In this document: positions 2,997 through 49,804 of the stretch, piece after piece
Numbering within the stretch: the first letter of the stretch is position 1
How the letters are laid out: each line of letters begins with the position of its first letter
Assembly: GCF_013488205.1 (NCBI RefSeq)
Contig: NZ_CP040908.1
Location: 905,876 to 969,875 of the forward strand
Length of the DNA: 64,000 nucleotides
Origin: Empedobacter falsenii
GTDB lineage: Bacteria; Bacteroidota; Bacteroidia; Flavobacteriales; Weeksellaceae
Direction: 5' to 3'
Notes under the pieces: generated by a model
The model's input: only the letters and a program-made list of their open reading frames with translations
What the model was told of the DNA's origin: nothing
The model's database searches: none
Translations under genes and position numbers: made by a program

Positions 2997-5309
2997 ATGA
3001 AATTTTTACAATTAATTCTCATTTTGATTAGTTCTTTTGCTTTTGCACAAGAAAAATATTCGATTACAGGAAATATTTCATCAAAAAATGAGTCAAAAAC
3101 AATTCAAGCAAAAGTTATTTTACACGATGAATTTCAAAATGTTATTCAAACAATTGAAACTGAAAACTCTAAATTTAACTTTGAAAATTTAGAACAAAAA
3201 ATATATTCAATTTCAGTTATTTATGATAATAAAATTCAAGATGAAGAACCTTTTTATTTGAACGAAAATAAAACATTTCACTTAAATATTGATGAAACTG
3301 TACAAATTAATGAAGTTGTAATCAATGGAAAAAAGGAAACTTTCAAAATAGAAAATGGCAATTATAATATTGATGTAGCTAATTCAAATTTTAATAAACT
3401 TGCTACAACCAAAGAATTATTTTCAAAATTACCAAGCGTCATGTTGGGAGCAGATCAAGAAACATTGACAATTATTGGAAAAGGAAATCCTTTGTTGTAT
3501 TTGGACGATCAACAAGTTGATTTTTCTACCATTTCGAGTTTAGCAATTGAGGACATAAAATCGATTGAAATTATTAAAAATCCATCTGCAAAATATGAAG
3601 CAAATGGAAGATCTGTCGTAAAAATTAACCTTAAAAAAAGTAAAAAAGAAGGTTTAAAATTCTCTTTACAGGAAACATTATCGTTCAAAAGAAAGTTCAA
3701 TAATTATTTCAATTCGACTTTTCAAATTCGTAAAAACAAAAGTGAATTTAAATTGAATGCATCTTATAATCAACTAAATCCTTGGGAAGGAAATGGATTC
3801 GATTATCGAGTAAAAGATAAAAATATTCAGTCCAATTATTTCATAAAATCGCAAACAAAGCGTCCGCATTTTATTGTAAATACAAGCTTTTTTCAAGAAT
3901 TAAATGAATCTGGAGATTATCTTTCATTTGCTATTAATTCGAATTTCAGAAAAGATAAAGGTTTGATTGATACCAAAACAGAATATTCAGAAAACAATGA
4001 AAATCAATCTATTTTAACCTTAAATGATAATGAAAATCATCGAAATTTTGTGAATACCTTGATGAATTACAATAAAAATATTCAATCAATTGACGTAAGT
4101 ATTTTAACAGGTTTGCAATACACGATTTATAATACAGGAACGACATACGATTTTTACAATAAGATAAATGAAAATGATATCGAATACAATCAATCGCGCT
4201 ATCAAAAATATCGTCTTAAGGTTTTTGCAGGGAAATTTGATGTAGAGAAAAAGTTTGAATCTGATCAAAAAATTGAATTTGGAGGACGTTTTACACATGC
4301 AAAATCAGAAACAACTAATCAAACGTTTTTTTCTCAAAAATCATCAGAAGAATTTCTTTATAATTTCAAAGAGCTGAATCTTTCCGCTTATTTGCAATAC
4401 ACAAAAAATTATGAAAAATGGAATTATAAAGCCGGATTAAGAACAGAAGCAACTAATTCTAAAGGTTTTGATGAAATAAAACAACTTTCGGATATTGATA
4501 AAAAATACATTGATTGGTTTCCGAATGCAGAAATTAATTACACTTTTGAGAATAAAGATGCGTTGACAATTTATTACAAACGTACAATTGATAGACCGAA
4601 TTACAGCACCCTTTCTTCTGGGAATTTGTACGGAAGTCCTTATATCGAATACAGCGGAAATTTTAATATTTTACCTACTTACACCGATACGTTTTCTGCG
4701 AATTATTCATTGAAAAAATGGAACATGAATGTGACGTATTATCAAAGTAAAAATCCGATGAATTATACGTTGATTTATGATGATGTGAGAAATATTTCAA
4801 CATTTACAACGGTTAATTTTGAAAAAGAAAAAAATATTTCTGTTGGTTTAGATGTTCCGTTCGAATATAAATTTTGGTCAACACAAATTAGTTTATCTAT
4901 GATTTATAGTAAAATAATTGATAAAAAAGCTGTGCTTAAAAAATCTGTTCCGTATATCTATTTATACTCTAATCATAATTTCAAATTGGGAAAAGATTTT
5001 AATTTTATGCTTGATGGATATTGGCTAAGAAAACGAACAGAAGGAATTTATGATCGAAATTCTCAAGTTATCGTTAACCTTGGATTGACCAAATCATACA
5101 AAAACCTTGATTTTTCTATTCGTTTCAATGATTTATTTAAACAAATGAAATTTAGCGAAACATTGAATTATGATAAAATAAGTTCTAAAAACCTATTTTT
5201 AGTCGATTATCAAGAACTATCTGTTGGTGTTAAATATAATTTTGGCCGATTAAATAAAACCATCTCGAAAGAGAATAAAGTAAATGAAGAGGAAGGGAGA
5301 ATTAGGTAA
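2997..5309 (+). CDS. TonB-dependent receptor-like outer-membrane beta-barrel protein
   Basis: Signal peptide, then a carboxypeptidase-regulatory-like N-domain, a plug-like region and a long beta-barrel with a C-terminal aromatic residue. Confidence 0.7.
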   Translation: MKFLQLILILISSFAFAQEKYSITGNISSKNESKTIQAKVILHDEFQNVIQTIETENSKFNFENLEQKIYSISVIYDNKIQDEEPFYLNENKTFHLNIDETVQINEVVINGKKETFKIENGNYNIDVANSNFNKLATTKELFSKLPSVMLGADQETLTIIGKGNPLLYLDDQQVDFSTISSLAIEDIKSIEIIKNPSAKYEANGRSVVKINLKKSKKEGLKFSLQETLSFKRKFNNYFNSTFQIRKNKSEFKLNASYNQLNPWEGNGFDYRVKDKNIQSNYFIKSQTKRPHFIVNTSFFQELNESGDYLSFAINSNFRKDKGLIDTKTEYSENNENQSILTLNDNENHRNFVNTLMNYNKNIQSIDVSILTGLQYTIYNTGTTYDFYNKINENDIEYNQSRYQKYRLKVFAGKFDVEKKFESDQKIEFGGRFTHAKSETTNQTFFSQKSSEEFLYNFKELNLSAYLQYTKNYEKWNYKAGLRTEATNSKGFDEIKQLSDIDKKYIDWFPNAEINYTFENKDALTIYYKRTIDRPNYSTLSSGNLYGSPYIEYSGNFNILPTYTDTFSANYSLKKWNMNVTYYQSKNPMNYTLIYDDVRNISTFTTVNFEKEKNISVGLDVPFEYKFWSTQISLSMIYSKIIDKKAVLKKSVPYIYLYSNHNFKLGKDFNFMLDGYWLRKRTEGIYDRNSQVIVNLGLTKSYKNLDFSIRFNDLFKQMKFSETLNYDKISSKNLFLVDYQELSVGVKYNFGRLNKTISKENKVNEEEGRIR

Positions 5310-37369: not shown

Positions 37370-38125
37370 TTATTCAACTAATTTATTAAAATCTTCTTGG
37401 TTTCCATTGAAAACATTCAAATCAACATAAGTATTTATCCCTTTTATGTGCGCTCTATTTGCAAATTGCCAAAAATCCCAATGTCTATTATCCTTAATAG
37501 TTGGTTTTTTATATATATCCCTAAACCATATCATATTTTCCTCAAATTGACCTATTAAATAATCATTATAAAATTCTTCAGTTACATAAAGAATAGGCTT
37601 TTTGTTGTAATGTGAATGAATAATATTTTCAAATATCTTGATTTCAGAAATCAATTCATTTTTCGATTTTACAAGTTTACAATTTCCACCATATTCCAAA
37701 TCAATTACAGGGGGCAAATTATTTTGTTCAATAGGAACTGTTTCTATAAAATTATTAGCCTGCTCTTCACCTGTTTTGCAAAAAGTAAAAAAATGATATG
37801 CGCCAACAAAAAAACGATTTTTTTTAGCGTTTTTCCAATTATAATCGAAACGTTTATCTTTAAAATCTCCTCCTTCTGTAGCTTTTATATATACAAAATG
37901 AATTTTAGTTTTGTCTATTTTTTCCCATTCAATTAAATTTTGATGATTAGAAACATCAATTCCTTGTATAGGATATTTTTTAGATGATGGATAATTAAAT
38001 CTCAAAATTCCTATATAAAATAAAATACCAATTAATAAGATTAATGTAAATGGTAAAAGTTTGATATATTTTTTTCTACTTGAATGCATGCCATTATAAT
38101 AAAATATTTTATCTAAATTAATCAT
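37370..38125 (-). CDS. GH25 family lysozyme/muramidase with N-terminal TM anchor
   Basis: GH25 signature (GIDVSNHQ ... YIKATEG ... D) and an N-terminal TM helix. Confidence 0.75.
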   Translation of the reverse strand: MINLDKIFYYNGMHSSRKKYIKLLPFTLILLIGILFYIGILRFNYPSSKKYPIQGIDVSNHQNLIEWEKIDKTKIHFVYIKATEGGDFKDKRFDYNWKNAKKNRFFVGAYHFFTFCKTGEEQANNFIETVPIEQNNLPPVIDLEYGGNCKLVKSKNELISEIKIFENIIHSHYNKKPILYVTEEFYNDYLIGQFEENMIWFRDIYKKPTIKDNRHWDFWQFANRAHIKGINTYVDLNVFNGNQEDFNKLVE

Positions 38126-38180
38126 TTATATTTCAATCAAAAAAACATACTTTTAAATCATAAAAAAAAATGATAATCTT

Positions 38181-38699
38181 ATGAAAAAGTTTATTCTTCC
38201 TGTTATATTATTAAGTTTTGTTACAAGTTGTAATTCTAATAATTCATCTAGTTCATCAACGGAAAATAAAGTTGAAAATGAAGTGAAAGATTCAGTTAAA
38301 CCATCAGATGTTAATTATAATGTTGCGCTTGATTTTATGAATAATTATGTCGATTATATTATGGATACAATTGGTAAAATAAATCAAGATGAGTATAATA
38401 AACAAAACGAATTATTGACGCAAAGTTTTAAAGATCGATACAAATTTGTGCAAGATTCTGCTTATAAAGTTGAGCCAGAAGTTGGTTTGGATTTTGATCC
38501 GATTGTCGATGGGCAAGATTTTCCGGATAAAGGATTTAAAATAAAATCGATTGATAAGGCAACAGGTTTAGTGACTTTGCAAGGAATAGATTGGCAAGAT
38601 TTTGAAGTCATTTTGAAAGTTGTTAACGAGAATAATAAATCGCTAGTAAATGGTTCTGGGATTATTAATATTCCGACGGACAAACAGGCAAAAAGATAA
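38181..38699 (+). CDS. hypothetical lipoprotein
   Basis: Lipobox VTSC followed by a Ser-rich linker. Confidence 0.45.
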   Translation: MKKFILPVILLSFVTSCNSNNSSSSSTENKVENEVKDSVKPSDVNYNVALDFMNNYVDYIMDTIGKINQDEYNKQNELLTQSFKDRYKFVQDSAYKVEPEVGLDFDPIVDGQDFPDKGFKIKSIDKATGLVTLQGIDWQDFEVILKVVNENNKSLVNGSGIINIPTDKQAKR

Positions 38700-38784
38700 A
38701 GTGATGAAAACTGAAAATTCTATAATAAACTTGGAAAATGATATAAATTTTCAGTTTGTTTTGATTTGAATTTTTTGTTTATTT

Positions 38785-39246
38785 TTGTCCAACATGAAAA
38801 TGCAACATTACATAAAGTATGTTTTGTCGGTGGTTTTGATTTTCTCAAATCTTAACTACGCATTTTCTATGCATTTTTGTCAAGGAGAAATGGAGCAAGT
38901 GAAGTTGAATCATTTGGATAATAATTCGTGCGAAATGGAAGTTTCTACTTCGTGCTGCCCTCCAAAAACAGAAAAAAAACATTGCGAATTACCAGAAAAC
39001 AATAAATCTAAAAAAGACGATTGTTGCAAAGATATTTCATATTCGGATAAGTTTGTGGAAAAGCAAATTGTCAAAATTCAGAAACTTGTTCCAATTAGTT
39101 TTATAGCTTCTGAAATTCTTCAAATTAGAATTCCGATTCAAGATGAAGAGGTAAGTAATCAATCAAATTTTCTTGACTTTTATGTTGCGTCAAATGCGCC
39201 GCCAAATTATATACTCAATTCTCAATTAACATTTTACGAAGGATAA
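38785..39246 (+). CDS. HYC_CC_PP family protein (Cys-rich, putative metal-binding), upstream of a TonB-dependent receptor
   Basis: HFC ... SCCPP ... DCCKD motifs plus a signal peptide. Sits immediately upstream of the receptor gene. Confidence 0.55.
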   Translation: MSNMKMQHYIKYVLSVVLIFSNLNYAFSMHFCQGEMEQVKLNHLDNNSCEMEVSTSCCPPKTEKKHCELPENNKSKKDDCCKDISYSDKFVEKQIVKIQKLVPISFIASEILQIRIPIQDEEVSNQSNFLDFYVASNAPPNYILNSQLTFYEG

Positions 39247-39372
39247 TAACCGTTGTTTTTGATTAAATCAATCAGAAAACAATAAGCTATTATCTAAATA
39301 TTAAAGTATTTGTTAAAAATTTAATCAACAAGTACACAATAATAAATAGGCATTGAGCCTTAAATCGTAAAA

Positions 39373-41622
39373 ATGAAAAAAATATTCACTTCAGTATTTA
39401 TACTAAGTGCTGCGTTATCTTACGCGCAATCTACATTAAAGGGAAAAATTACAGATCAAAATAAACAACCAATCGTTGGAGCAGAAGTGTTTTGGCAATC
39501 GTCAGATATTTCAGTTATTACAGATGAAAAAGGAAATTTTGAGATCGAAAATTATCAACCAACTTCAATTTTAGGTGTTTTTTATGACAATGAGACGACA
39601 ACTTTTAAGGAATTAAAAGACGAATTTCAGAATATCACTATCAATGTAAAAGATCATTTTGGGGATACTTCGTTGAATGAAGTTGTGGTTCGTGATACAA
39701 GTAGTTCGCTTAAAAAATCGAAGTTTGCAACCAATATGACGACAATGACTGGAAAAGAATTGTTGAAAGCAGCATGTTGTAATTTAGCTGAATCTTTCGA
39801 GACAAATCCTTCTATTGATGTCAATTTTTCGGATGCTGTGACAGGAAATAAGCAAATTAAAATGTTAGGTTTAACCTCTCCTTATATTTTGATTGCAGAA
39901 GAAAATATACCAAATGTTCGTGGAGCTTCTCAAGCTTTTGGGCTTAGTTTTACGCCAGGAACTTGGGTAGAAAGTATTCAGGTGACGAAAGGTGCTGGAA
40001 CGGTGATTAATGGTTACGAAAGTATTTCTGGGCAGATTAATACAGAATTAATAAAACCTTCAAATGATATTCCGTTGTTTGTGAATCTTTATGGTTCGAC
40101 AGATTCTCGTTTTGAAGGAAATGTGCATTTGAACAAAAAATTGAATGATAAATGGAGTACTTCTTTGTTTATGCATGGAAATGCACGTGTTTCGAAAAAT
40201 GACATGAACGATGATGGATTTTTAGATAATCCGCTTGGACATCAAGTTAATGTGATGAATCGTTGGCAATATCAAAACTTAGAAAAAGGTTGGGTTGGAT
40301 TTTTATCAGCACGTTATTTGAATGATACAAAACAAGCAGGACAAGTTGATTTTGATAAAGATCGCGATAAATTAACAACAAATTATTGGGGATCAGAAAT
40401 CAATACAAATCGTGTGGATGTTTCGTCAAAAATTGGGTATGTTTTTCCAGAAATGCCTTATCAAAGTATGGGATTACAAACGGCGTTTAGCTATCATAAA
40501 CAAGATTCTTACTTTGGATTGAATCAATATGATATCGAACAACAAAGTTTTTATGCCAATTATATTTTTAGTTCGATTATTAGCAATACAAAAAATAAAT
40601 TCTCTACAGGAGCTAGTTTTACATACGATAAATTCAAGGAATTTGTAGCGCTTCCAACGGATGCGAATTATGATCGAATTGATAATTCTGCAGGAGCATT
40701 TTTCGAATATACGTTTGATAATATGAAGAATTTCAATATGATTGCTGGGCTTCGTGGAGATTATCATAATCGAATGGGCTTTTTCTTGACACCGCGTTTG
40801 CATACGCGTTATATGCCAGTAAAAGGAACAACAATAAAAGCGTCGGTTGGTCGCGGAAAACGAATCAATAATATATTTGCAGAAAATCAGAATTTATTTG
40901 CATCTTCAAGACAATTTAATATTCTGGGCGATGGAAATGGAAAAATATATGGTTTAGATCCAGAAATTGCATGGAATTATGGATTTAGCGTAACACAAGA
41001 ATTTAAATTATTTGGTAAAAATGCAGATGTTACAGCAGATTTTTATCGAACAGATTTTCAAAATCAAATCGTAACTGATATCGATTATTTGGCTCGTCAA
41101 GTAAGATTTTATAATTTAGAAGGAGATTCGTATGCAAATTCGTTCCAATTTGATTTTAATTATAATCCATTCACAAATTTCAAAATTAGAGCATCTTATA
41201 AATATTACGATATCGCAACAGATTATGAAAAAGGAAAATTAGAACGTCCGTTGCAAGCGAAACATCGTTTCTTTACAAATTTAGAATACGAAACACGCGA
41301 AAGAAATGGTAAAAATTGGCGTTTTGATGCAACGTATAATTGGATTGGAAAACAGCGTTTACCAAATACATCAGATAATTTACCAGAAAATCAGTTGAAT
41401 GAATATTCGAATCCATTTGGGACAATTAATTTCCAGATTACACGTGTTTTTTCAAAACGTTTTGAAGTATATATTGGAGGAGAAAATGTAACGAATTATC
41501 AACAACATCGCGTAATTTTAGGAGCAGATAATCCTTTTGGTTCAAATTTCGATAGTTCGATTGTTTATGCGCCAATTTTTGGACAAATGTATTACGCTGG
41601 ATTAAGATTTAGTTTAAAATAA
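39373..41622 (+). CDS. TonB-dependent receptor (CarboxypepD_reg N-domain, plug, barrel)
   Basis: Signal peptide, an N-terminal carboxypeptidase-regulatory-like domain, and a C-terminal barrel ending in an aromatic-rich strand (GLRFSLK). Confidence 0.8.
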   Translation: MKKIFTSVFILSAALSYAQSTLKGKITDQNKQPIVGAEVFWQSSDISVITDEKGNFEIENYQPTSILGVFYDNETTTFKELKDEFQNITINVKDHFGDTSLNEVVVRDTSSSLKKSKFATNMTTMTGKELLKAACCNLAESFETNPSIDVNFSDAVTGNKQIKMLGLTSPYILIAEENIPNVRGASQAFGLSFTPGTWVESIQVTKGAGTVINGYESISGQINTELIKPSNDIPLFVNLYGSTDSRFEGNVHLNKKLNDKWSTSLFMHGNARVSKNDMNDDGFLDNPLGHQVNVMNRWQYQNLEKGWVGFLSARYLNDTKQAGQVDFDKDRDKLTTNYWGSEINTNRVDVSSKIGYVFPEMPYQSMGLQTAFSYHKQDSYFGLNQYDIEQQSFYANYIFSSIISNTKNKFSTGASFTYDKFKEFVALPTDANYDRIDNSAGAFFEYTFDNMKNFNMIAGLRGDYHNRMGFFLTPRLHTRYMPVKGTTIKASVGRGKRINNIFAENQNLFASSRQFNILGDGNGKIYGLDPEIAWNYGFSVTQEFKLFGKNADVTADFYRTDFQNQIVTDIDYLARQVRFYNLEGDSYANSFQFDFNYNPFTNFKIRASYKYYDIATDYEKGKLERPLQAKHRFFTNLEYETRERNGKNWRFDATYNWIGKQRLPNTSDNLPENQLNEYSNPFGTINFQITRVFSKRFEVYIGGENVTNYQQHRVILGADNPFGSNFDSSIVYAPIFGQMYYAGLRFSLK

Positions 41623-41644
41623 AAATCATAAAAAATATAAAATA

Positions 41645-42010
41645 ATGAAAAAATTATTAGCCTTTGCTTTGGTTGCGACTTTAGGAATTAGCGCACAAGC
41701 ACAAAATAAAAATGCAAAACACGATTTACACGTTAAAGGAAATTGTAGGCAATGCAAAGATCGTATAGAAAAAGCAGCTTATGGTGTAAAAGGTGTAAAA
41801 TCTGCTGAATGGGATAGTAATACGCAAAATTTACATATTATATTGAATGAGAAAAAGAGTAAAGTGGATGATGTAGAAAACGCTGTAGTAGCGGTTGGTC
41901 ACGATACTGATAATAAACGTGCAGAAGAAAAAGTGTACGGAAATTTACCTTCTTGTTGTTCATATGATCGTGAAGGTTCAGCTGGGGAAGCTAACACGCA
42001 TAGTCATTAA
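41645..42010 (+). CDS. heavy-metal-associated (HMA) domain periplasmic protein with Cys/His-rich tail
   Basis: HMA-like VKGNCRQCKDRIE motif. C-terminal SCCSYD ... HSH tail. Signal peptide. Confidence 0.6.
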   Translation: MKKLLAFALVATLGISAQAQNKNAKHDLHVKGNCRQCKDRIEKAAYGVKGVKSAEWDSNTQNLHIILNEKKSKVDDVENAVVAVGHDTDNKRAEEKVYGNLPSCCSYDREGSAGEANTHSH

Positions 42011-42025
42011 AAGATTTTAAAATAC

Positions 42026-42058
42026 AAAAAAGGGATTTCAATTAGAAATCCCTTTTTT
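42026..42058 (+). terminator. intrinsic terminator
   Basis: AAAAAGGGATTTC-AATTA-GAAATCCCTTTTTT. Confidence 0.75.
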
Positions 42059-42130
42059 GTTTATAAGATGTTAATAGTTTAAAAATGAAAATTTTATTTT
42101 TAACTTTTAGTTAACATTAACATTCTATCT

Positions 42131-42703
42131 TTGTTGTCTTTCCTTTTTTGGAAAGGAGCAAATAAATTAATTGAAGTGAAAATAGGTCAAATTGTAGAGA
42201 TTCCAAAAAATTCTTCTATTTATAATAAAGAAAAACCATCTTTTCGATCAAAAGAAGAAGAACTTTCGTGGAAGGTAAGCCAAAGAAGTTATTCTTTGTT
42301 TGATGGTTTTATTGTAGGAGAACATACTGGAATAGATAAATTTGAAATAGGACAACGAAAAGGTTTAAATGTTAGCGGAAAAGAATTTCCGGTTTATGTG
42401 ATTGGAATTGATAAACGCGAGAACAGAATTTTTGTAGGACAAGGAAAAAATCATCCAGGTCTTTTTACAGATGTATTCTCTTTTGAAGAACAAAATATAA
42501 GTTGGTTAGAAAAACCATTTTTAATAGATGAGATAGAAGTGAATGTTACTTCTATACATTTGAAAGAAGAAATAAATGCGAGATTTTATCAATTTGGAAA
42601 AATCTATTTTTTGGAGTTTGAAAAACAAATTCCTTTGATAATGAAAAATTACACATTAAGGCTTTCTTATGAAAACAAGGAAGTTATACTATTAAATAAA
42701 TAA
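42131..42703 (+). CDS. hypothetical protein (start uncertain; the listed ORF begins at a TTG)
   Basis: ORF only. The first codon is TTG and lies inside a CTTTCC-TTTTTT-GGAAAG hairpin. Confidence 0.3.
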   Translation: MLSFLFWKGANKLIEVKIGQIVEIPKNSSIYNKEKPSFRSKEEELSWKVSQRSYSLFDGFIVGEHTGIDKFEIGQRKGLNVSGKEFPVYVIGIDKRENRIFVGQGKNHPGLFTDVFSFEEQNISWLEKPFLIDEIEVNVTSIHLKEEINARFYQFGKIYFLEFEKQIPLIMKNYTLRLSYENKEVILLNK

Positions 42704-42714
42704 TTGTTATAAAA

Positions 42715-44499
42715 ATGAAATTGAAATTTACTTTTTTATCATTTGCTTTAGCATTATTCGCACAAGCTCAAAAAGCACCTGCGTATTACTCGAGCATTAA
42801 TTTTAGCAAGACGAAGAATGAGTTGAAAAATGATTTTGCTAAATTAATTACAGATACACATAAACAAAATGTATCTTATTCAGAAGGTTTGAAAAATCTA
42901 TTTCAAACAAGTGATGCCGATCCTCAAAATCCATCTAACTTATTGTTGATTTATGGATCTCAAAGTTCAGGTACACATCAAAGAAGTCGTGCTTTTTCAG
43001 GATCTTGGAATAGAGAGCATGTTTATGCAAAATCTAAAGGAACGCCAAATTTAGGAACTTCTGGACCTGGATCAGACGGACATCATTTACGTCCTGCTGA
43101 TGTTACATTGAATAGTACTCGTGGAAGTTTGCTTTTTGATGATGGAGTAGGAGTAATGGCAATGAAAACGAGCCGTGGTGGTTGGTATCCAGGTGATGAA
43201 TGGAAAGGAGATGTTGCGAGAATTTTAATGTATATGTATGTACGTTATGACAAACGAACTTTACCTCTTAATATTACTTTTGGACCAAGTACGTATTCGT
43301 CAGATTTCCCTGATATTCTTTTGAAGTGGAATGTAGAAGATCCTGTTTCACAATTTGAAATTCAAAGAAATAACGTTGTAGCGAATGTTCAAGGAAATAG
43401 AAATCCGTTTATTGATAATCCATATTTAGCAACTGTTATTTGGGGAGGTCCTAAAGCGCAAAACAATTGGCCAGAATCTTTTGGTGAAGGCGGAGGTTCT
43501 GAAGAGGATACTGAAAAACCTACTGCACCAACAAATTTAGCTTCAACAACGATTACATCTTCAAGTGTGTCGTTAACTTGGACGGCTTCTACAGATAATG
43601 TAGGTGTTAATAGATATGATATTTATGTAGATAACACTTATAATACAACTGTTTATAGTAATAACGGAACAGTTTCTGGATTAAATCCTTCAACAACTTA
43701 TTCTTTTTATGTTGTTGCAAAAGATGCAGCTGGAAATAAATCGGATAATAGTACAGCAATTCAAGTAACAACAAAAGAATCTAATACAGGAGGAGGTTCA
43801 GGAGAAGGAACAAGCTGTGGAACAGAGGATTTTGAAAATATTCCATCTACAGGAAGTACGCCTCCAGCATCATCTTATACAGATAGAACTTGGTCGAATA
43901 GAGGAATTGTGTGGACTGCAACAAATGCAAGAACAGACAAGCAAATTTATATCGATGGAGATAGTAATAAAGCAATTTGTATTAGAAAAGGAAATTTAAA
44001 ATCATCTACAATTTCTGGAGGAATAGGATCTTTATCAGTAAAAACATATCTTCCTTTTGCAGATTCTGATGGATTTTATACATTAAAAATTAATGGAGAA
44101 GTAAAAGGACAAATACCTTATTCTAAAACAGCTAAAACAACAAAAATTGATAATATTAATGTTGAAGGAGATGTTGTAATTGAGTTGATTGATGAAACTT
44201 CAAATAATCGTGTTTCTTTCGATAATTTATCATGGACTTGTTACGAAAAATTAGCAACAGATGAGGTTAAAAAACAAAATAATAAATTAGTTATTTATCC
44301 TAATCCAGTTAAAAATCATGAATTTGTTGTCAATGGAATTGAAAATAAAGAAACAATTCAAATTTTTACTATCAATGGACAATTGGTTCAAACGATTCAA
44401 AATGTAACAAATAATTCTAAAGTTAGATTAAATAAACTACCTAAAGGAGTTTATATCGTTAAAACGAAAAATCAATCTAATAAAATTATTGTTGATTAA
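42715..44499 (+). CDS. secreted endonuclease I family nuclease with FN3 domain and T9SS C-terminal sorting domain
   Basis: Signal peptide. EndA/NucM-like core (RSRAFSGSWNREHVYA, GHHLRPAD), an FN3-like segment, and a C-terminal T9SS CTD (YPNPVKN ... GVYIVK). Confidence 0.75.
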   Translation: MKLKFTFLSFALALFAQAQKAPAYYSSINFSKTKNELKNDFAKLITDTHKQNVSYSEGLKNLFQTSDADPQNPSNLLLIYGSQSSGTHQRSRAFSGSWNREHVYAKSKGTPNLGTSGPGSDGHHLRPADVTLNSTRGSLLFDDGVGVMAMKTSRGGWYPGDEWKGDVARILMYMYVRYDKRTLPLNITFGPSTYSSDFPDILLKWNVEDPVSQFEIQRNNVVANVQGNRNPFIDNPYLATVIWGGPKAQNNWPESFGEGGGSEEDTEKPTAPTNLASTTITSSSVSLTWTASTDNVGVNRYDIYVDNTYNTTVYSNNGTVSGLNPSTTYSFYVVAKDAAGNKSDNSTAIQVTTKESNTGGGSGEGTSCGTEDFENIPSTGSTPPASSYTDRTWSNRGIVWTATNARTDKQIYIDGDSNKAICIRKGNLKSSTISGGIGSLSVKTYLPFADSDGFYTLKINGEVKGQIPYSKTAKTTKIDNINVEGDVVIELIDETSNNRVSFDNLSWTCYEKLATDEVKKQNNKLVIYPNPVKNHEFVVNGIENKETIQIFTINGQLVQTIQNVTNNSKVRLNKLPKGVYIVKTKNQSNKIIVD

Positions 44500-47365: not shown

Positions 47366-49804
47366 TTAAAACTTAAAATTAATTTTTCCATTCAAGAAAC
47401 GTCCTGTCAAATAATTTGGCATCGTATAAACTGCACTCGAATTTACATCACGAATCCATGAATTACTGATTTCATTTTTGATATCAAACACATTGAATAC
47501 ATCTACACCAATCGAAATTTCTTTGAAATTACTCCAAAATGTTCCTTTTGATGGTTTCAATTCTTTTTGATTAATCAATTCTTTCACAAAACCAATATCT
47601 ACACGTTTGTAATCTGTCAGCGTTGTTTGATAATTATATGGATCTGCAAATTGTGGTGCTCCGTTTGGTAAACCAGAAGCATAAATTAAATTCACATTCA
47701 CCTTGAAGGAAGGTAAAAACTCCATATAATCTTGGAAAAATGCCGATAATTTGAAACGTGGATCTGTCGGTAATGGAATATTTCCTTTATCATCAATATT
47801 TTGATAAGCACGCGCATATGAAGCCGAGAACCAAGAATCAATACCAGGAACAAACTGCCCAAATAAACGCATGTCAAGTCCATATGCGTAACCTTTCGAG
47901 TTGTTATCTGCTGTATAACGAATTCTCACATTGTCCACATAATACGGATTCAAATCATTTAAGATTTTGTAATAAACCTCAGTTGTTAATTTGAACGGAC
48001 GATCCATCCATTTAAATTCGTAATCGTTTCCAAAAATAAAGTGTATAGATTGTTGCGATTTTACTTTATCATTTAACGAACCATCTAAACGACGAATCTC
48101 GCGATAGAAAGGAGGTTGATAATAAACACCTGTCGAAAAACGGAACAACATATCGCTTTCCCAATCTGGTTTGATCGCGATTTGAGCACGAGGCGAAACG
48201 GTTGTTTCTTCATTAAAATCCCAATAAGCCGCACGTACACCAGCATTGAACATCACTTTCGCATCATTCCACATAAATTTGCTCGTGTATTGCGCATAAC
48301 CAGAAATACGATTAGTTTTTAAATTATTTTTAGAATTCACATAATAACTTAAATTCAGACCATTATTAGGATTTGGATTCACAACATATCCTGTCGAATC
48401 AATCGCTTGCCATTCACCCAATAAATCACGAATATCTTCTTGTTGAAATTTTGCACCCCACTCAATATCATTGTTTCCGTTGATTTTGTATTTTCCTTTG
48501 TGTTGAATTCCGGCAACTAATGCATCAAAATTATTTCGTGCATGATCGATTTGCGAACCAACATCATTCGTAGAAGTTGCAAAGCCTTTTTCGTCTACTT
48601 CGGAAATGAAATAAGAACCTTGAATATCAAAATATTCGCGCTCTTTCGAATGATAAGCAAAAACATCTAACCCTAAATCTACTTTAGAATTTGGTTGATA
48701 CGTAAACGATAAACTTCCTGTTTCTGTCGCAAATTTATCATCTTCTTTTCCGTCATAAAAAACAGTTAGCAACAAGGGAGTATCCATTGTATTGATATAA
48801 GTTTCACGTTTTATAGGGAACATTTCGTAGCGCGAACGCGACATTGTTCCCAAAAATGCAACATTCCATTTATCATTTAATTTATAATTGATATTGGCTT
48901 GCACATCGTAATATTCAGGATTGAAATTGGTATCACCTTTTAAGGTATTTAATACTAAATTTCTGTTTTGATAACGCGCTCCAACAATTGCCGAAAGTTT
49001 TTTGTCTTTAGAACCTCCGCCTAATGTCAAGCTTCCGCCCATTAAACTAGCTTCTAATTGACCTTCAAATTTTGTTGGACGTTTGTAGGTAACATCTAAA
49101 ACAGAAGACATTTTGTCGCCATATTTGGCTTCCCAACCACCAGCAGAAAAGTTGATAAATTGCGTCATCGCAGGATTTACAAAGCCTAAACCTTCTTGTT
49201 CACCAGAACGAATCAATTGAGGTTTGTAAACTTCGATTCCGTTAACGTAAATTAAATTTTCGTCATAATTTCCTCCGCGAACCATGTATTGCGAACTCAA
49301 TTCTGTATTCGAATTTACGAAAGGTAATGTTTTTAATAAATCGGCAACTCCGCCAGTTAAACTTGGTCCTTGTTGCATTTGCGCAGCACTCAAAACGGTA
49401 CTTTGCAAAGGTTTATTTTTATTGGATTGAAAAGAAATTGTTGCTTCACCTAATTCTATCGCATTGGTTTGATCAGGAACTAATTGAACAAAAATTTCTT
49501 TTTTGTTTTTATCTTTTAGCGTAAACGTTTGTGCAAACGAATGATAACCATTATTGTTAAAAGTTACGGTAACGGAAGAATTTGATGGAATATCAATTTT
49601 GAAATTACCATTTTGATCTGTAAAATAAGATTGATCGTTGACAATAATCTCAGCTTCACTAATTGGAATTCTATTTTCGTCGACAACTTTACCATTAATT
49701 TGCGCTGTTTGAGCAAATAAAATTCCACCCAAAAGAGATAAACTTATGGTACTAAGAAATCTTTTTGAATGTTGTAGAGTACGTTGCTGTGTTGTTTTTT
49801 TCAT
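47366..49804 (-). CDS. TonB-dependent receptor
   Basis: Signal peptide, CarboxypepD_reg-like N-domain, plug, and a barrel with terminal aromatic residues. Confidence 0.8.
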   Translation of the reverse strand: MKKTTQQRTLQHSKRFLSTISLSLLGGILFAQTAQINGKVVDENRIPISEAEIIVNDQSYFTDQNGNFKIDIPSNSSVTVTFNNNGYHSFAQTFTLKDKNKKEIFVQLVPDQTNAIELGEATISFQSNKNKPLQSTVLSAAQMQQGPSLTGGVADLLKTLPFVNSNTELSSQYMVRGGNYDENLIYVNGIEVYKPQLIRSGEQEGLGFVNPAMTQFINFSAGGWEAKYGDKMSSVLDVTYKRPTKFEGQLEASLMGGSLTLGGGSKDKKLSAIVGARYQNRNLVLNTLKGDTNFNPEYYDVQANINYKLNDKWNVAFLGTMSRSRYEMFPIKRETYINTMDTPLLLTVFYDGKEDDKFATETGSLSFTYQPNSKVDLGLDVFAYHSKEREYFDIQGSYFISEVDEKGFATSTNDVGSQIDHARNNFDALVAGIQHKGKYKINGNNDIEWGAKFQQEDIRDLLGEWQAIDSTGYVVNPNPNNGLNLSYYVNSKNNLKTNRISGYAQYTSKFMWNDAKVMFNAGVRAAYWDFNEETTVSPRAQIAIKPDWESDMLFRFSTGVYYQPPFYREIRRLDGSLNDKVKSQQSIHFIFGNDYEFKWMDRPFKLTTEVYYKILNDLNPYYVDNVRIRYTADNNSKGYAYGLDMRLFGQFVPGIDSWFSASYARAYQNIDDKGNIPLPTDPRFKLSAFFQDYMEFLPSFKVNVNLIYASGLPNGAPQFADPYNYQTTLTDYKRVDIGFVKELINQKELKPSKGTFWSNFKEISIGVDVFNVFDIKNEISNSWIRDVNSSAVYTMPNYLTGRFLNGKINFKF

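Follow-up and report, generated by a model that had tools for sequence, protein, structure and literature searches.

A three-gene operon of Empedobacter falsenii encodes a small protein of the HYC_CC_PP family (HYC), a TonB-dependent transporter (TBDR) and a periplasmic protein with an HMA domain, and each of the three proteins carries conserved cysteine motifs. The operon lies in a stretch of 64,000 nucleotides (NCBI RefSeq assembly GCF_013488205.1, contig NZ_CP040908.1, positions 905,876 to 969,875 of the forward strand), which is referred to here as the window and whose numbering is used throughout. The evidence slightly favors the view that this operon deals with a soft (thiophilic) metal ion within the cell envelope, with the TBDR importing the ion and the cysteine motifs relaying it.

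The outer-membrane passage of copper, zinc and similar ions is poorly known in Bacteroidota, and the characterized TBDRs for ionic metals (OprC and ZnuD) come from Proteobacteria. The TBDR described here is unusually conserved and is almost always flanked by the same two proteins with Cys motifs, forming a widespread and well-defined system in which the Cys pair of the TBDR plug is an unusual feature. Flavobacterium johnsoniae, which carries the same cluster and is genetically tractable, makes the system open to direct tests.

The three-gene operon and its conservation

The three genes, the elements that bracket them and the plug motif are as follows.

38780..38787, + strand: Bacteroidetes-type -7 promoter box TATTTTTG (TAnnTTTG), 6 nt 5' of ATG 38794
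38794..39246, + strand: HYC_CC_PP / DUF8199 protein (HYC), 150 residues, matching NF047658
39373..41622, + strand: TBDR, 749 residues, matching CarbopepD_reg_2 and Plug (Pfam)
39766..39825, + strand: plug motif KAACCNLAESFETNPSIDVN with the vicinal pair C135-C136, from alignment
41645..42010, + strand: periplasmic HMA protein, 121 residues, matching PF00403
42026..42058, + strand: intrinsic terminator hairpin with an A run and a T run on its flanks, from folding

A first-pass annotation of this DNA had described a gene for a Cys-rich protein followed by genes for a TonB-dependent receptor and an HMA protein. This arrangement is real, as all three open reading frames were found on the + strand, together spanning 38785-42010. 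One detail changes: the TTG codon at 38785, which had been taken as the start of HYC, overlaps the promoter box at 38780-38787 and the orthologues all start with MKMQ, so ATG 38794 is the likelier start.

Promoter and terminator were called by a search for TAnnTTTG and by folding; a sigma-70 scan was uninformative for this phylum and missed the terminator. The TAnnTTTG box is invariant across 15 aligned upstream regions and ends 2-12 nt (mode 4) 5' of the ATG in 66 of 86 HYC genes, counted over all fetched loci. The locus has three regulatory gaps, and the search found no second copy of the box in them: none precedes the TBDR gene and none the HMA gene. Because it ends 6 nt before ATG 38794, the mRNA is probably near-leaderless. 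The terminator hairpin folds at -21 kcal/mol (z = -6.7), and none of 200 shuffled sequences was as stable. The three genes form one operon, bracketed by a single promoter box and a single terminator.

The window has a low GC content (about 30%), and the neighborhood of the trio consists of housekeeping genes (glyS, dnaJ/grpE, dnaB, guaA, rny and nrd). The genes flanking the trio are 91-100% identical to those of Empedobacter, Algoriella and Faecalibacter genomes. Each of the 12 Weeksellaceae loci that were long enough to judge had the order HYC-TBDR-HMA. The trio recurs in Flavobacterium genomes with different flanks, namely exosortase F (XrtF) and its associated protein upstream and DedA downstream, at times with an HMA-MauE fusion. 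In a distant, GC-richer lineage, whose TBDR is 38% identical, the order is HYC-HMA-TBDR and the TBDR keeps the CC motif.

A survey from the side of the TBDR used 80 metagenome loci, retrieved by a search with the TBDR alignment (55-68% identity); they are not independent of one another in phylogeny, though their flanks vary. HYC lay upstream of the TBDR in 70 of the 73 loci that could be assessed, HMA lay downstream in all of 72, and both partners were present in 64 of 65. The trio has therefore been kept, despite differing flanks, from Weeksellaceae to Flavobacteriaceae and in the 38%-identical lineage, and the co-conservation on which the first-pass annotation had staked its reading holds up. 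The arrangement exceeds chance by far and is kept together across Flavobacteriia.

Cysteine motifs of the three proteins

The TBDR is composed of a signal peptide, a SusC-type N-terminal extension (residues about 20-95), a TonB-box-like sequence NEVVVRD (102-108), a divergent plug and a beta-barrel. Its Plug domain scores 33.3 bits against a Pfam cut-off of 23.9. The N-terminal extension aligns with solved SusC extensions and NEVVVRD with the TonB-box region of SusC; coupling to TonB is thus a prediction from sequence. The barrel was modeled by AlphaFold with a predicted local distance difference test score (pLDDT) of about 80, and Foldseek matched it to PirA, PfeA, BtuB, OprC and ZnuD at 10-15% identity, with a probability of 1.0 for the first four. 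More than 8000 database proteins match the TBDR at E<1e-10; it is 66-67% identical to its Flavobacterium orthologues and 100% identical to an Empedobacter falsenii protein.

The vicinal pair C135-C136, located within ELLKAACCNLAESFETNPSIDVN, provides the sole two Cys among the 749 residues of the TBDR. The pair is invariant in 30 aligned homologues and in one 38%-identical relative, and in nearly all of the 30 it is the only Cys of the mature protein. Two Cys-free outer-membrane barrels of the window were used as an internal contrast to this CC-bearing protein: another TonB-dependent receptor of 812 residues (47366-49804, - strand), which shares this type of N-terminal extension, and an OMP_b-brl_3 barrel (770 residues, 2997-5309, + strand). 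The TBDR contains 9 His in 749 residues, and His- or Asp-rich loops are not evident from its sequence. The plug motifs at residues 161-180 (39853-39912) look degenerate: QIKMLGL stands where TBDRs usually have "IRG", and ILIAEENIP replaces the usual "LIDG".

The HMA protein matches PF00403 with 26 bits (cut-off 24.8). It consists of a signal peptide ending in AQAQ, a C34-x-x-C37 site, a second pair C104-C105 (LPSCCSYDR) and a His-containing tail, which is His-rich in close relatives. Profile matches to CopZ, MerP and MerTP are weak. Among solved structures, the Cu(I)-binding CopA/CopZ domains come nearest, the best match being to the HMA domains of B. subtilis CopA (E=1e-6), and G-N-C34-R-Q-C37 aligns with the GMTCxxC of these CopA domains. 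Both the CxxC and the motif L(H/P)xCCxY(D/E)R are kept in every full-length orthologue, including those in contexts without a TBDR.

HYC scores 59 bits against the NCBIfam model NF047658 HYC_CC_PP (cut-off 28, E=6.5e-16), and its relatives are annotated as Pfam PF26622 (DUF8199). A profile search of 1.84 billion representatives returned 232 clusters of the family at E<=1e-3. The protein starts with a hydrophobic helix, followed by H27-F-C29, C54-C55, C77-C78 and a C-terminal SNAPP(136-137)...FYEG segment, FYVASNAPPNYILNSQLTFYEG; all three motifs that give the family its name (H-[YF]-C, CC and PP) stand at conserved columns. Among 64 diverse members (mean identity 31%), C29, C55, C77, C78, P136 and P137 are invariant, and H27, C54 and Y148 are kept in at least 90%. 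The Cys positions are thus conserved in orthologues, as the first-pass annotation supposed. Its "CCPP" motif is incidental: the PP that follows CC varies (CCAE, CCSS, CCTT), and the PP for which the family is named is P136-P137, part of the C-terminal SNAPP motif.

The AlphaFold model of HYC has a mean pLDDT of 63. Confidence is high for the helix at residues 3-19 alone (block pLDDT about 90); it falls to about 67-70 in a modeled hairpin (residues 23-39) and is low in the remainder. The N-terminal helix may act either as a signal peptide that is cut off or as an anchor in the membrane. A profile search against PDB sequences found no related solved structure, and no paper in the literature searched treats either the HYC_CC_PP/DUF8199 family or the trio. 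The family is named in databases and has no described function, partner or structure in the sources searched.

All three proteins are under purifying selection. The ratio of nonsynonymous to synonymous substitution rates (dN/dS) is 0.13-0.24 for HYC, 0.04-0.07 for the TBDR and 0.15-0.33 for the HMA protein.

A candidate thiol relay and its alternatives

The families of the trio also occur in other settings, and these point to metals. Distant relatives of HYC precede an HMA gene with a gene for a CDF efflux protein, an HMA gene with DUF3347 and Haem_bd genes, or an RND pump; one of them heads a complete RND-OEP-CusB/CzcB operon with HMBD and DUF3347. The HMA proteins beside these distant relatives keep both CxxC and CC. 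Because the HMA protein retains these motifs in all of these contexts, HYC and this HMA subfamily can be regarded as a constant module and the transporter as the variable part. Three TBDR loci are without HYC. They sit in copper-type resistance islands, where the TBDR stands beside a CusB-like adaptor with HMBD and DUF3347, beside DUF3347 and an HMA lipoprotein, or beside a multicopper oxidase, DUF305 and a P1B ATPase.

These contexts of their relatives tie the HYC and TBDR families to soft-metal transport, with copper-type partners the most frequent. The earlier reading of the trio as a thiophilic-metal locus is therefore supported in part: its link to metals is borne out by the CDF and RND contexts of HYC and the copper-type contexts of the TBDR, and its decision to leave the substrate open is still the right position. 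If a metal has to be named, copper would be the most probable and zinc the second. Data on ZntR of R. anatipestifer were also considered and set aside, as they could not be mapped to an orthologue.

A relay consistent with these observations may be proposed. We infer that metal is bound at all, as well as the identity of the metal, its import, the sequence of transfers and the topology of HYC. First, the TBDR would carry the ion across the outer membrane with energy from TonB, and the vicinal Cys pair of the plug would serve as a ligand. OprC, also a TBDR, has a Cys-containing site at which it binds ionic copper. Second, the HMA protein, which resembles MerP and CopZ and has a CxxC and a C-terminal CC, would receive the ion in the periplasm by thiol ligand exchange. 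In the mer system, Hg(II) passes from the CxxC of an HMA domain to a vicinal Cys pair (from MerP to MerT and from NmerA to the C-terminal CC of MerA). Third, HYC, which is small and mostly disordered and carries HxC and two CC motifs, would form a third thiol station. Its N-terminal helix would either hold the protein at the inner membrane or be cut, releasing it. HYC may thus act as a metallochaperone or buffer, similar to CusF in role and not in sequence, and would stay paired with this HMA subfamily regardless of the transporter.

A broader and distinctly more tentative proposal is that TBDRs with a vicinal Cys pair form an unrecognized mechanistic class that is core to Flavobacteriia. They would take a bare soft-metal ion on the CC of the plug and pass it to a MerP-like HMA protein and a DUF8199 protein, so that a mer-style relay would have been re-used for the supply of a nutrient metal, and DUF8199 proteins would be Cys-based periplasmic metallochaperones serving TBDR, CDF and RND transporters. 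If the cysteine relay holds, a function would be assigned to DUF8199 and to a large HMA subfamily, TonB-dependent transport would gain a new ligand chemistry, and there would be a handle on trace-metal supply in the abundant soil, aquatic and host-associated Flavobacteriia.

Compared to known systems, the trio shares features with several and matches none of them. OprC/NosA of Pseudomonas is similar in being a TBDR proposed for a bare soft-metal ion with Cys among the ligands, and in the fold of the barrel (Foldseek E about 1e-17). However, the identity is 12-14%, the CxxxM-HxM copper site of OprC is not present in the TBDR of the window, in which the Cys are adjacent and the residue at C+4 is Glu or Ala, and OprC has no dedicated HMA or DUF8199 partner genes. 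A copper TBDR of the OprC/NosA type was rejected on the failure of the CxxxM-HxM test. ZnuD, the zinc TBDR of Neisseria, together with ZnuA, offers a similar combination of an ionic-metal TBDR with a periplasmic binding protein, and the tail of the HMA protein contains His. In contrast, ZnuD shares 12-13% identity with the TBDR, in which no His- or Asp-rich loops are evident, and ZnuA is a cluster A-I solute-binding protein whereas the partner in the trio is an HMA protein with no ZnuBC adjacent. A zinc TBDR of the ZnuD type was rejected on the low identity, the lack of adjacent ZnuBC and the different periplasmic partner.

The mer relay resembles the trio in having a periplasmic HMA protein with a signal peptide and CxxC, vicinal Cys pairs on the partners, and the logic of a thiol hand-off. 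However, the HMA protein scores 21.5 against a MerP cut-off of 92.55, and the membrane partner of mer is MerT in the inner membrane while that of the trio is a TBDR in the outer membrane. The typical setting of mer is a resistance transposon, whereas the trio lies in a conserved housekeeping part of the chromosome. No MerT, MerA or MerR was found among the open reading frames of the locus or the flanking ones scanned, in a window that is annotated in part. A mer operon was rejected on the missed MerP cut-off and on the mer genes not being seen in the frames scanned. CusF with CusCBA also pairs a small envelope protein with a metal transporter, and HYC relatives of the RDIP type head RND-OEP-CusB/CzcB operons. 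CusF and HYC have no relation in sequence or fold, though, and CusF uses Met, His and Trp whereas HYC offers His and Cys; the Cus transporter is an efflux pump, and that of the window is a TBDR. Taken together, these comparisons present the trio as an apparent combination of an ionic-metal TBDR system (OprC, ZnuD) with a chaperone of the MerP type, failing the defining tests of each and lacking a significant relation to them in sequence.

Several observations weigh against an import relay. The plug of the TBDR was modeled at pLDDT 23-56, compared to about 80 for the barrel, and alignments to solved TBDRs cover the N-terminal extension or part of the barrel only. Because the plug is modeled below a pLDDT of 50, the model gives no spatial placement of C135-C136, be it outside, in the channel or toward the periplasm. 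The pair could instead be a vicinal disulfide with a purely structural role. The Pfam score of the HMA protein barely exceeds the cut-off. The Empedobacter locus has no inner-membrane importer, and the window has no homologue of DedA or MauE. A conserved box upstream of the operon, described in the last section, is weakly closer to a Fur-family box than to the operator of any copper sensor. The literature searched holds no experimental or expression report on any family member. In addition, the occurrence of HYC relatives with efflux pumps and of TBDR relatives in resistance islands fits homeostasis or detoxification equally well.

This last point leads to the strongest of the alternatives, which is still improbable relative to import: the operon would serve homeostasis or detoxification instead of acquisition, with HYC and the HMA protein buffering or sensing an excess of soft metal and the TBDR serving a regulated, resistance-linked flux. 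CopC/CopD, the paradoxical importers within copper-resistance operons, offer a comparison. Members of the HYC family do head CDF and RND (Cus/Czc-like) efflux operons, the three HYC-less TBDR loci do lie in the islands described above (multicopper oxidase, DUF305, P1B ATPase, CusB-like adaptor with DUF3347), and the lack of an inner-membrane importer in the window locus would be as expected. However, the efflux-linked HYC proteins form a separate branch that ends in PP..RDIPVLxQSFLL and scores weakly for DUF8199, and the trio itself sits in a housekeeping setting (glyS, dnaJ, grpE) and in no island. Moreover, TBDRs are not known to be anything but importers.

It is rather unlikely that the cargo is a thiol-reactive or sulfur-containing ligand, such as a complex of a metal with a metallophore, or that the Cys motifs constitute a thiol-disulfide redox relay. 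TBDRs usually carry chelates, and a metallophore was allowed by the first-pass annotation as well. The periplasm is oxidizing, so that Cys pairs could be redox-active, and some Flavobacterium loci add the HMA-MauE fusion, the MauE family being linked to disulfide formation. These points are countered by the CxxC of the HMA protein, which occupies the canonical metal-binding loop, and by relatives that accompany pumps for bare ions (CDF, RND, P1B ATPase). In addition, no gene for the biosynthesis of a metallophore or of a ribosomally synthesized and post-translationally modified peptide adjoins the trio in the loci examined, and an Rfam scan of 38000-42300 (E<=1) found no riboswitch or other RNA element.

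A role of HYC outside metal handling is suggested by its neighbors in Flavobacterium, where XrtF (TIGR04128) and its associated protein (TIGR04127) are encoded immediately 5' of HYC. HYC could then be a substrate or partner of XrtF with a function at the surface or in biofilms, and its adjacency to the TBDR and HMA genes would be mere synteny; we regard this as very unlikely. Of 57 metagenome loci that could be assessed (L025-L104), 27 have the XrtF pair directly before HYC, and HYC has a conserved C-terminal motif containing PP. Against this, XrtF is absent from the 64-kb window and from 14 Weeksellaceae loci, and in lineages that have no XrtF close by, HYC is found together with HMA and metal pumps. 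The HYC promoter box is kept 4 nt before the ATG even where the gene of the XrtF-associated protein ends about 40 nt upstream, and the C-terminus of HYC, SNAPPNYILNSQLTFYEG, is without the transmembrane helix or Arg/Lys cluster of exosortase signals.

The counterparts of the trio in F. johnsoniae are presumably Fjoh_1450, Fjoh_1451 and Fjoh_1452, tags that we assume from their position after Fjoh_1448/1449. No substrate of XrtF is known; F. johnsoniae strains mutated in xrtF no longer form biofilms or colonize sand (PMC10936215). The three tags are absent from the supplementary files of that study (PMC10936215), a further point against a link of HYC to XrtF. HYC as a substrate of XrtF was rejected, since it has no tripartite C-terminal signal and the adjacency occurs in 27 of 57 loci only, and the adjacency of the two is treated as synteny.

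Finally, the notion that the three genes are unrelated neighbors whose Cys motifs are coincidental is effectively refuted by co-occurrence in 70 of 73 and 72 of 72 loci, by the survival of the trio under changed order and flanks, and by Cys that are invariant in all three proteins.

Regulatory features and neighboring genes

In addition to the promoter box and the terminator, three elements were found in the gaps before HYC and between HYC and the TBDR gene.

38734..38748, + strand: conserved box GAAAATGATATAAAT, a candidate regulator site, from the upstream alignment
39252..39283, + strand: AU-rich hairpin directly 3' of the HYC stop codon, from folding
39348..39360, + strand: GC-rich palindrome AGGCATTGAGCCT, 13 nt 5' of the TBDR start

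The first-pass annotation suggested a search for Zur- or CsoR-like operators upstream of 38785. None could be assigned there, and the only candidate site is the conserved box GAAAATGATATAAAT. Of 15 Weeksellaceae loci, 10 have it at a fixed distance of -59/-60 from the ATG, in a spacer that has otherwise diverged; this places it upstream of the -33 region. Faecalibacter lacks the box, and it could not be made out in the single Flavobacterium upstream region inspected (L015). When its 19-mer was compared with the E. coli Fur consensus, 14 of 19 positions matched. By this match, the 19-mer ranks among the top 12 of about 64,000 in the window. Used as a probe for a regulon, the box showed no enrichment elsewhere in the window. 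It is also the second copy of a direct repeat, GAAAAT(T/G)(C/A)TATAA, with a period of 21 nt (38713, 38734). In the strain of the window, an inverted repeat CTGAAAATT...AATTTTCAG encloses both copies (38713-38748) and is not kept in relatives.

The spacer between HYC and the TBDR gene folds at -19.2 kcal/mol (z = -3.2). Relatives have hairpins of differing sequence at the same site 3' of HYC, and RNAalifold found no shared pairs and no consensus structure in their spacers. The hairpin at 39252-39283 could be a leaky terminator or a stability element. In the palindrome at 39348-39360, the AGGC/GCCT stem arms are kept among loci of the Empedobacter group while the loop varies.

Some loci of relatives contain additional or altered genes. 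An HMA domain of the cytoplasmic type is fused to a MauE/DoxX-like membrane protein at L016:9870-10583 and also in L042, L051, L067, L079 and L082, with the fusion gene sited 3' of the gene for the periplasmic HMA protein or else between those for HYC and the TBDR. Such a fusion could be the missing inner-membrane component. At L099:3761-6226, an HMA domain of the cytoplasmic type lies in frame directly 5' of the TBDR signal peptide with no stop codon in between, and an apparent TBDR-HMA fusion at L018:7471-9903 was rejected on a frameshift near the 3' end of the TBDR gene. Both joined reading frames may be assembly errors or pseudogenes. In Flavobacteriaceae, a DedA/VTT gene usually lies 3' of the HMA gene, and a small GAF gene is found divergently upstream of the XrtF cluster, with ribosomal protein S15 beyond (L015:5984-6956, L016, L018, L105).

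The genes next to the trio in the window are as follows. At 38181-38699 (+ strand), between a lysozyme-like gene and the trio, a predicted lipoprotein of 172 residues is encoded, with a signal ending in LSFVTSC and no family match; since it is present in some relatives only, it probably lies outside the module. On the other side, an open reading frame of 190 residues at 42131-42703 (+ strand) resembles MnmA (48 bits) in the C-terminal PRC-barrel part alone and is without the catalytic N-terminal half of this tRNA 2-thiouridine synthase. It looks like a stand-alone domain protein and not like fresh decay, because it is found 3' of the trio at 67-89% identity in several Empedobacter and Algoriella genomes. 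Beyond it, at 42715-44499 (+ strand), lies the gene for a secreted nuclease with an Endonuclease I domain, a fibronectin type III domain and a C-terminal sorting domain for type IX secretion, which adjoins the MnmA-like reading frame in relatives too.

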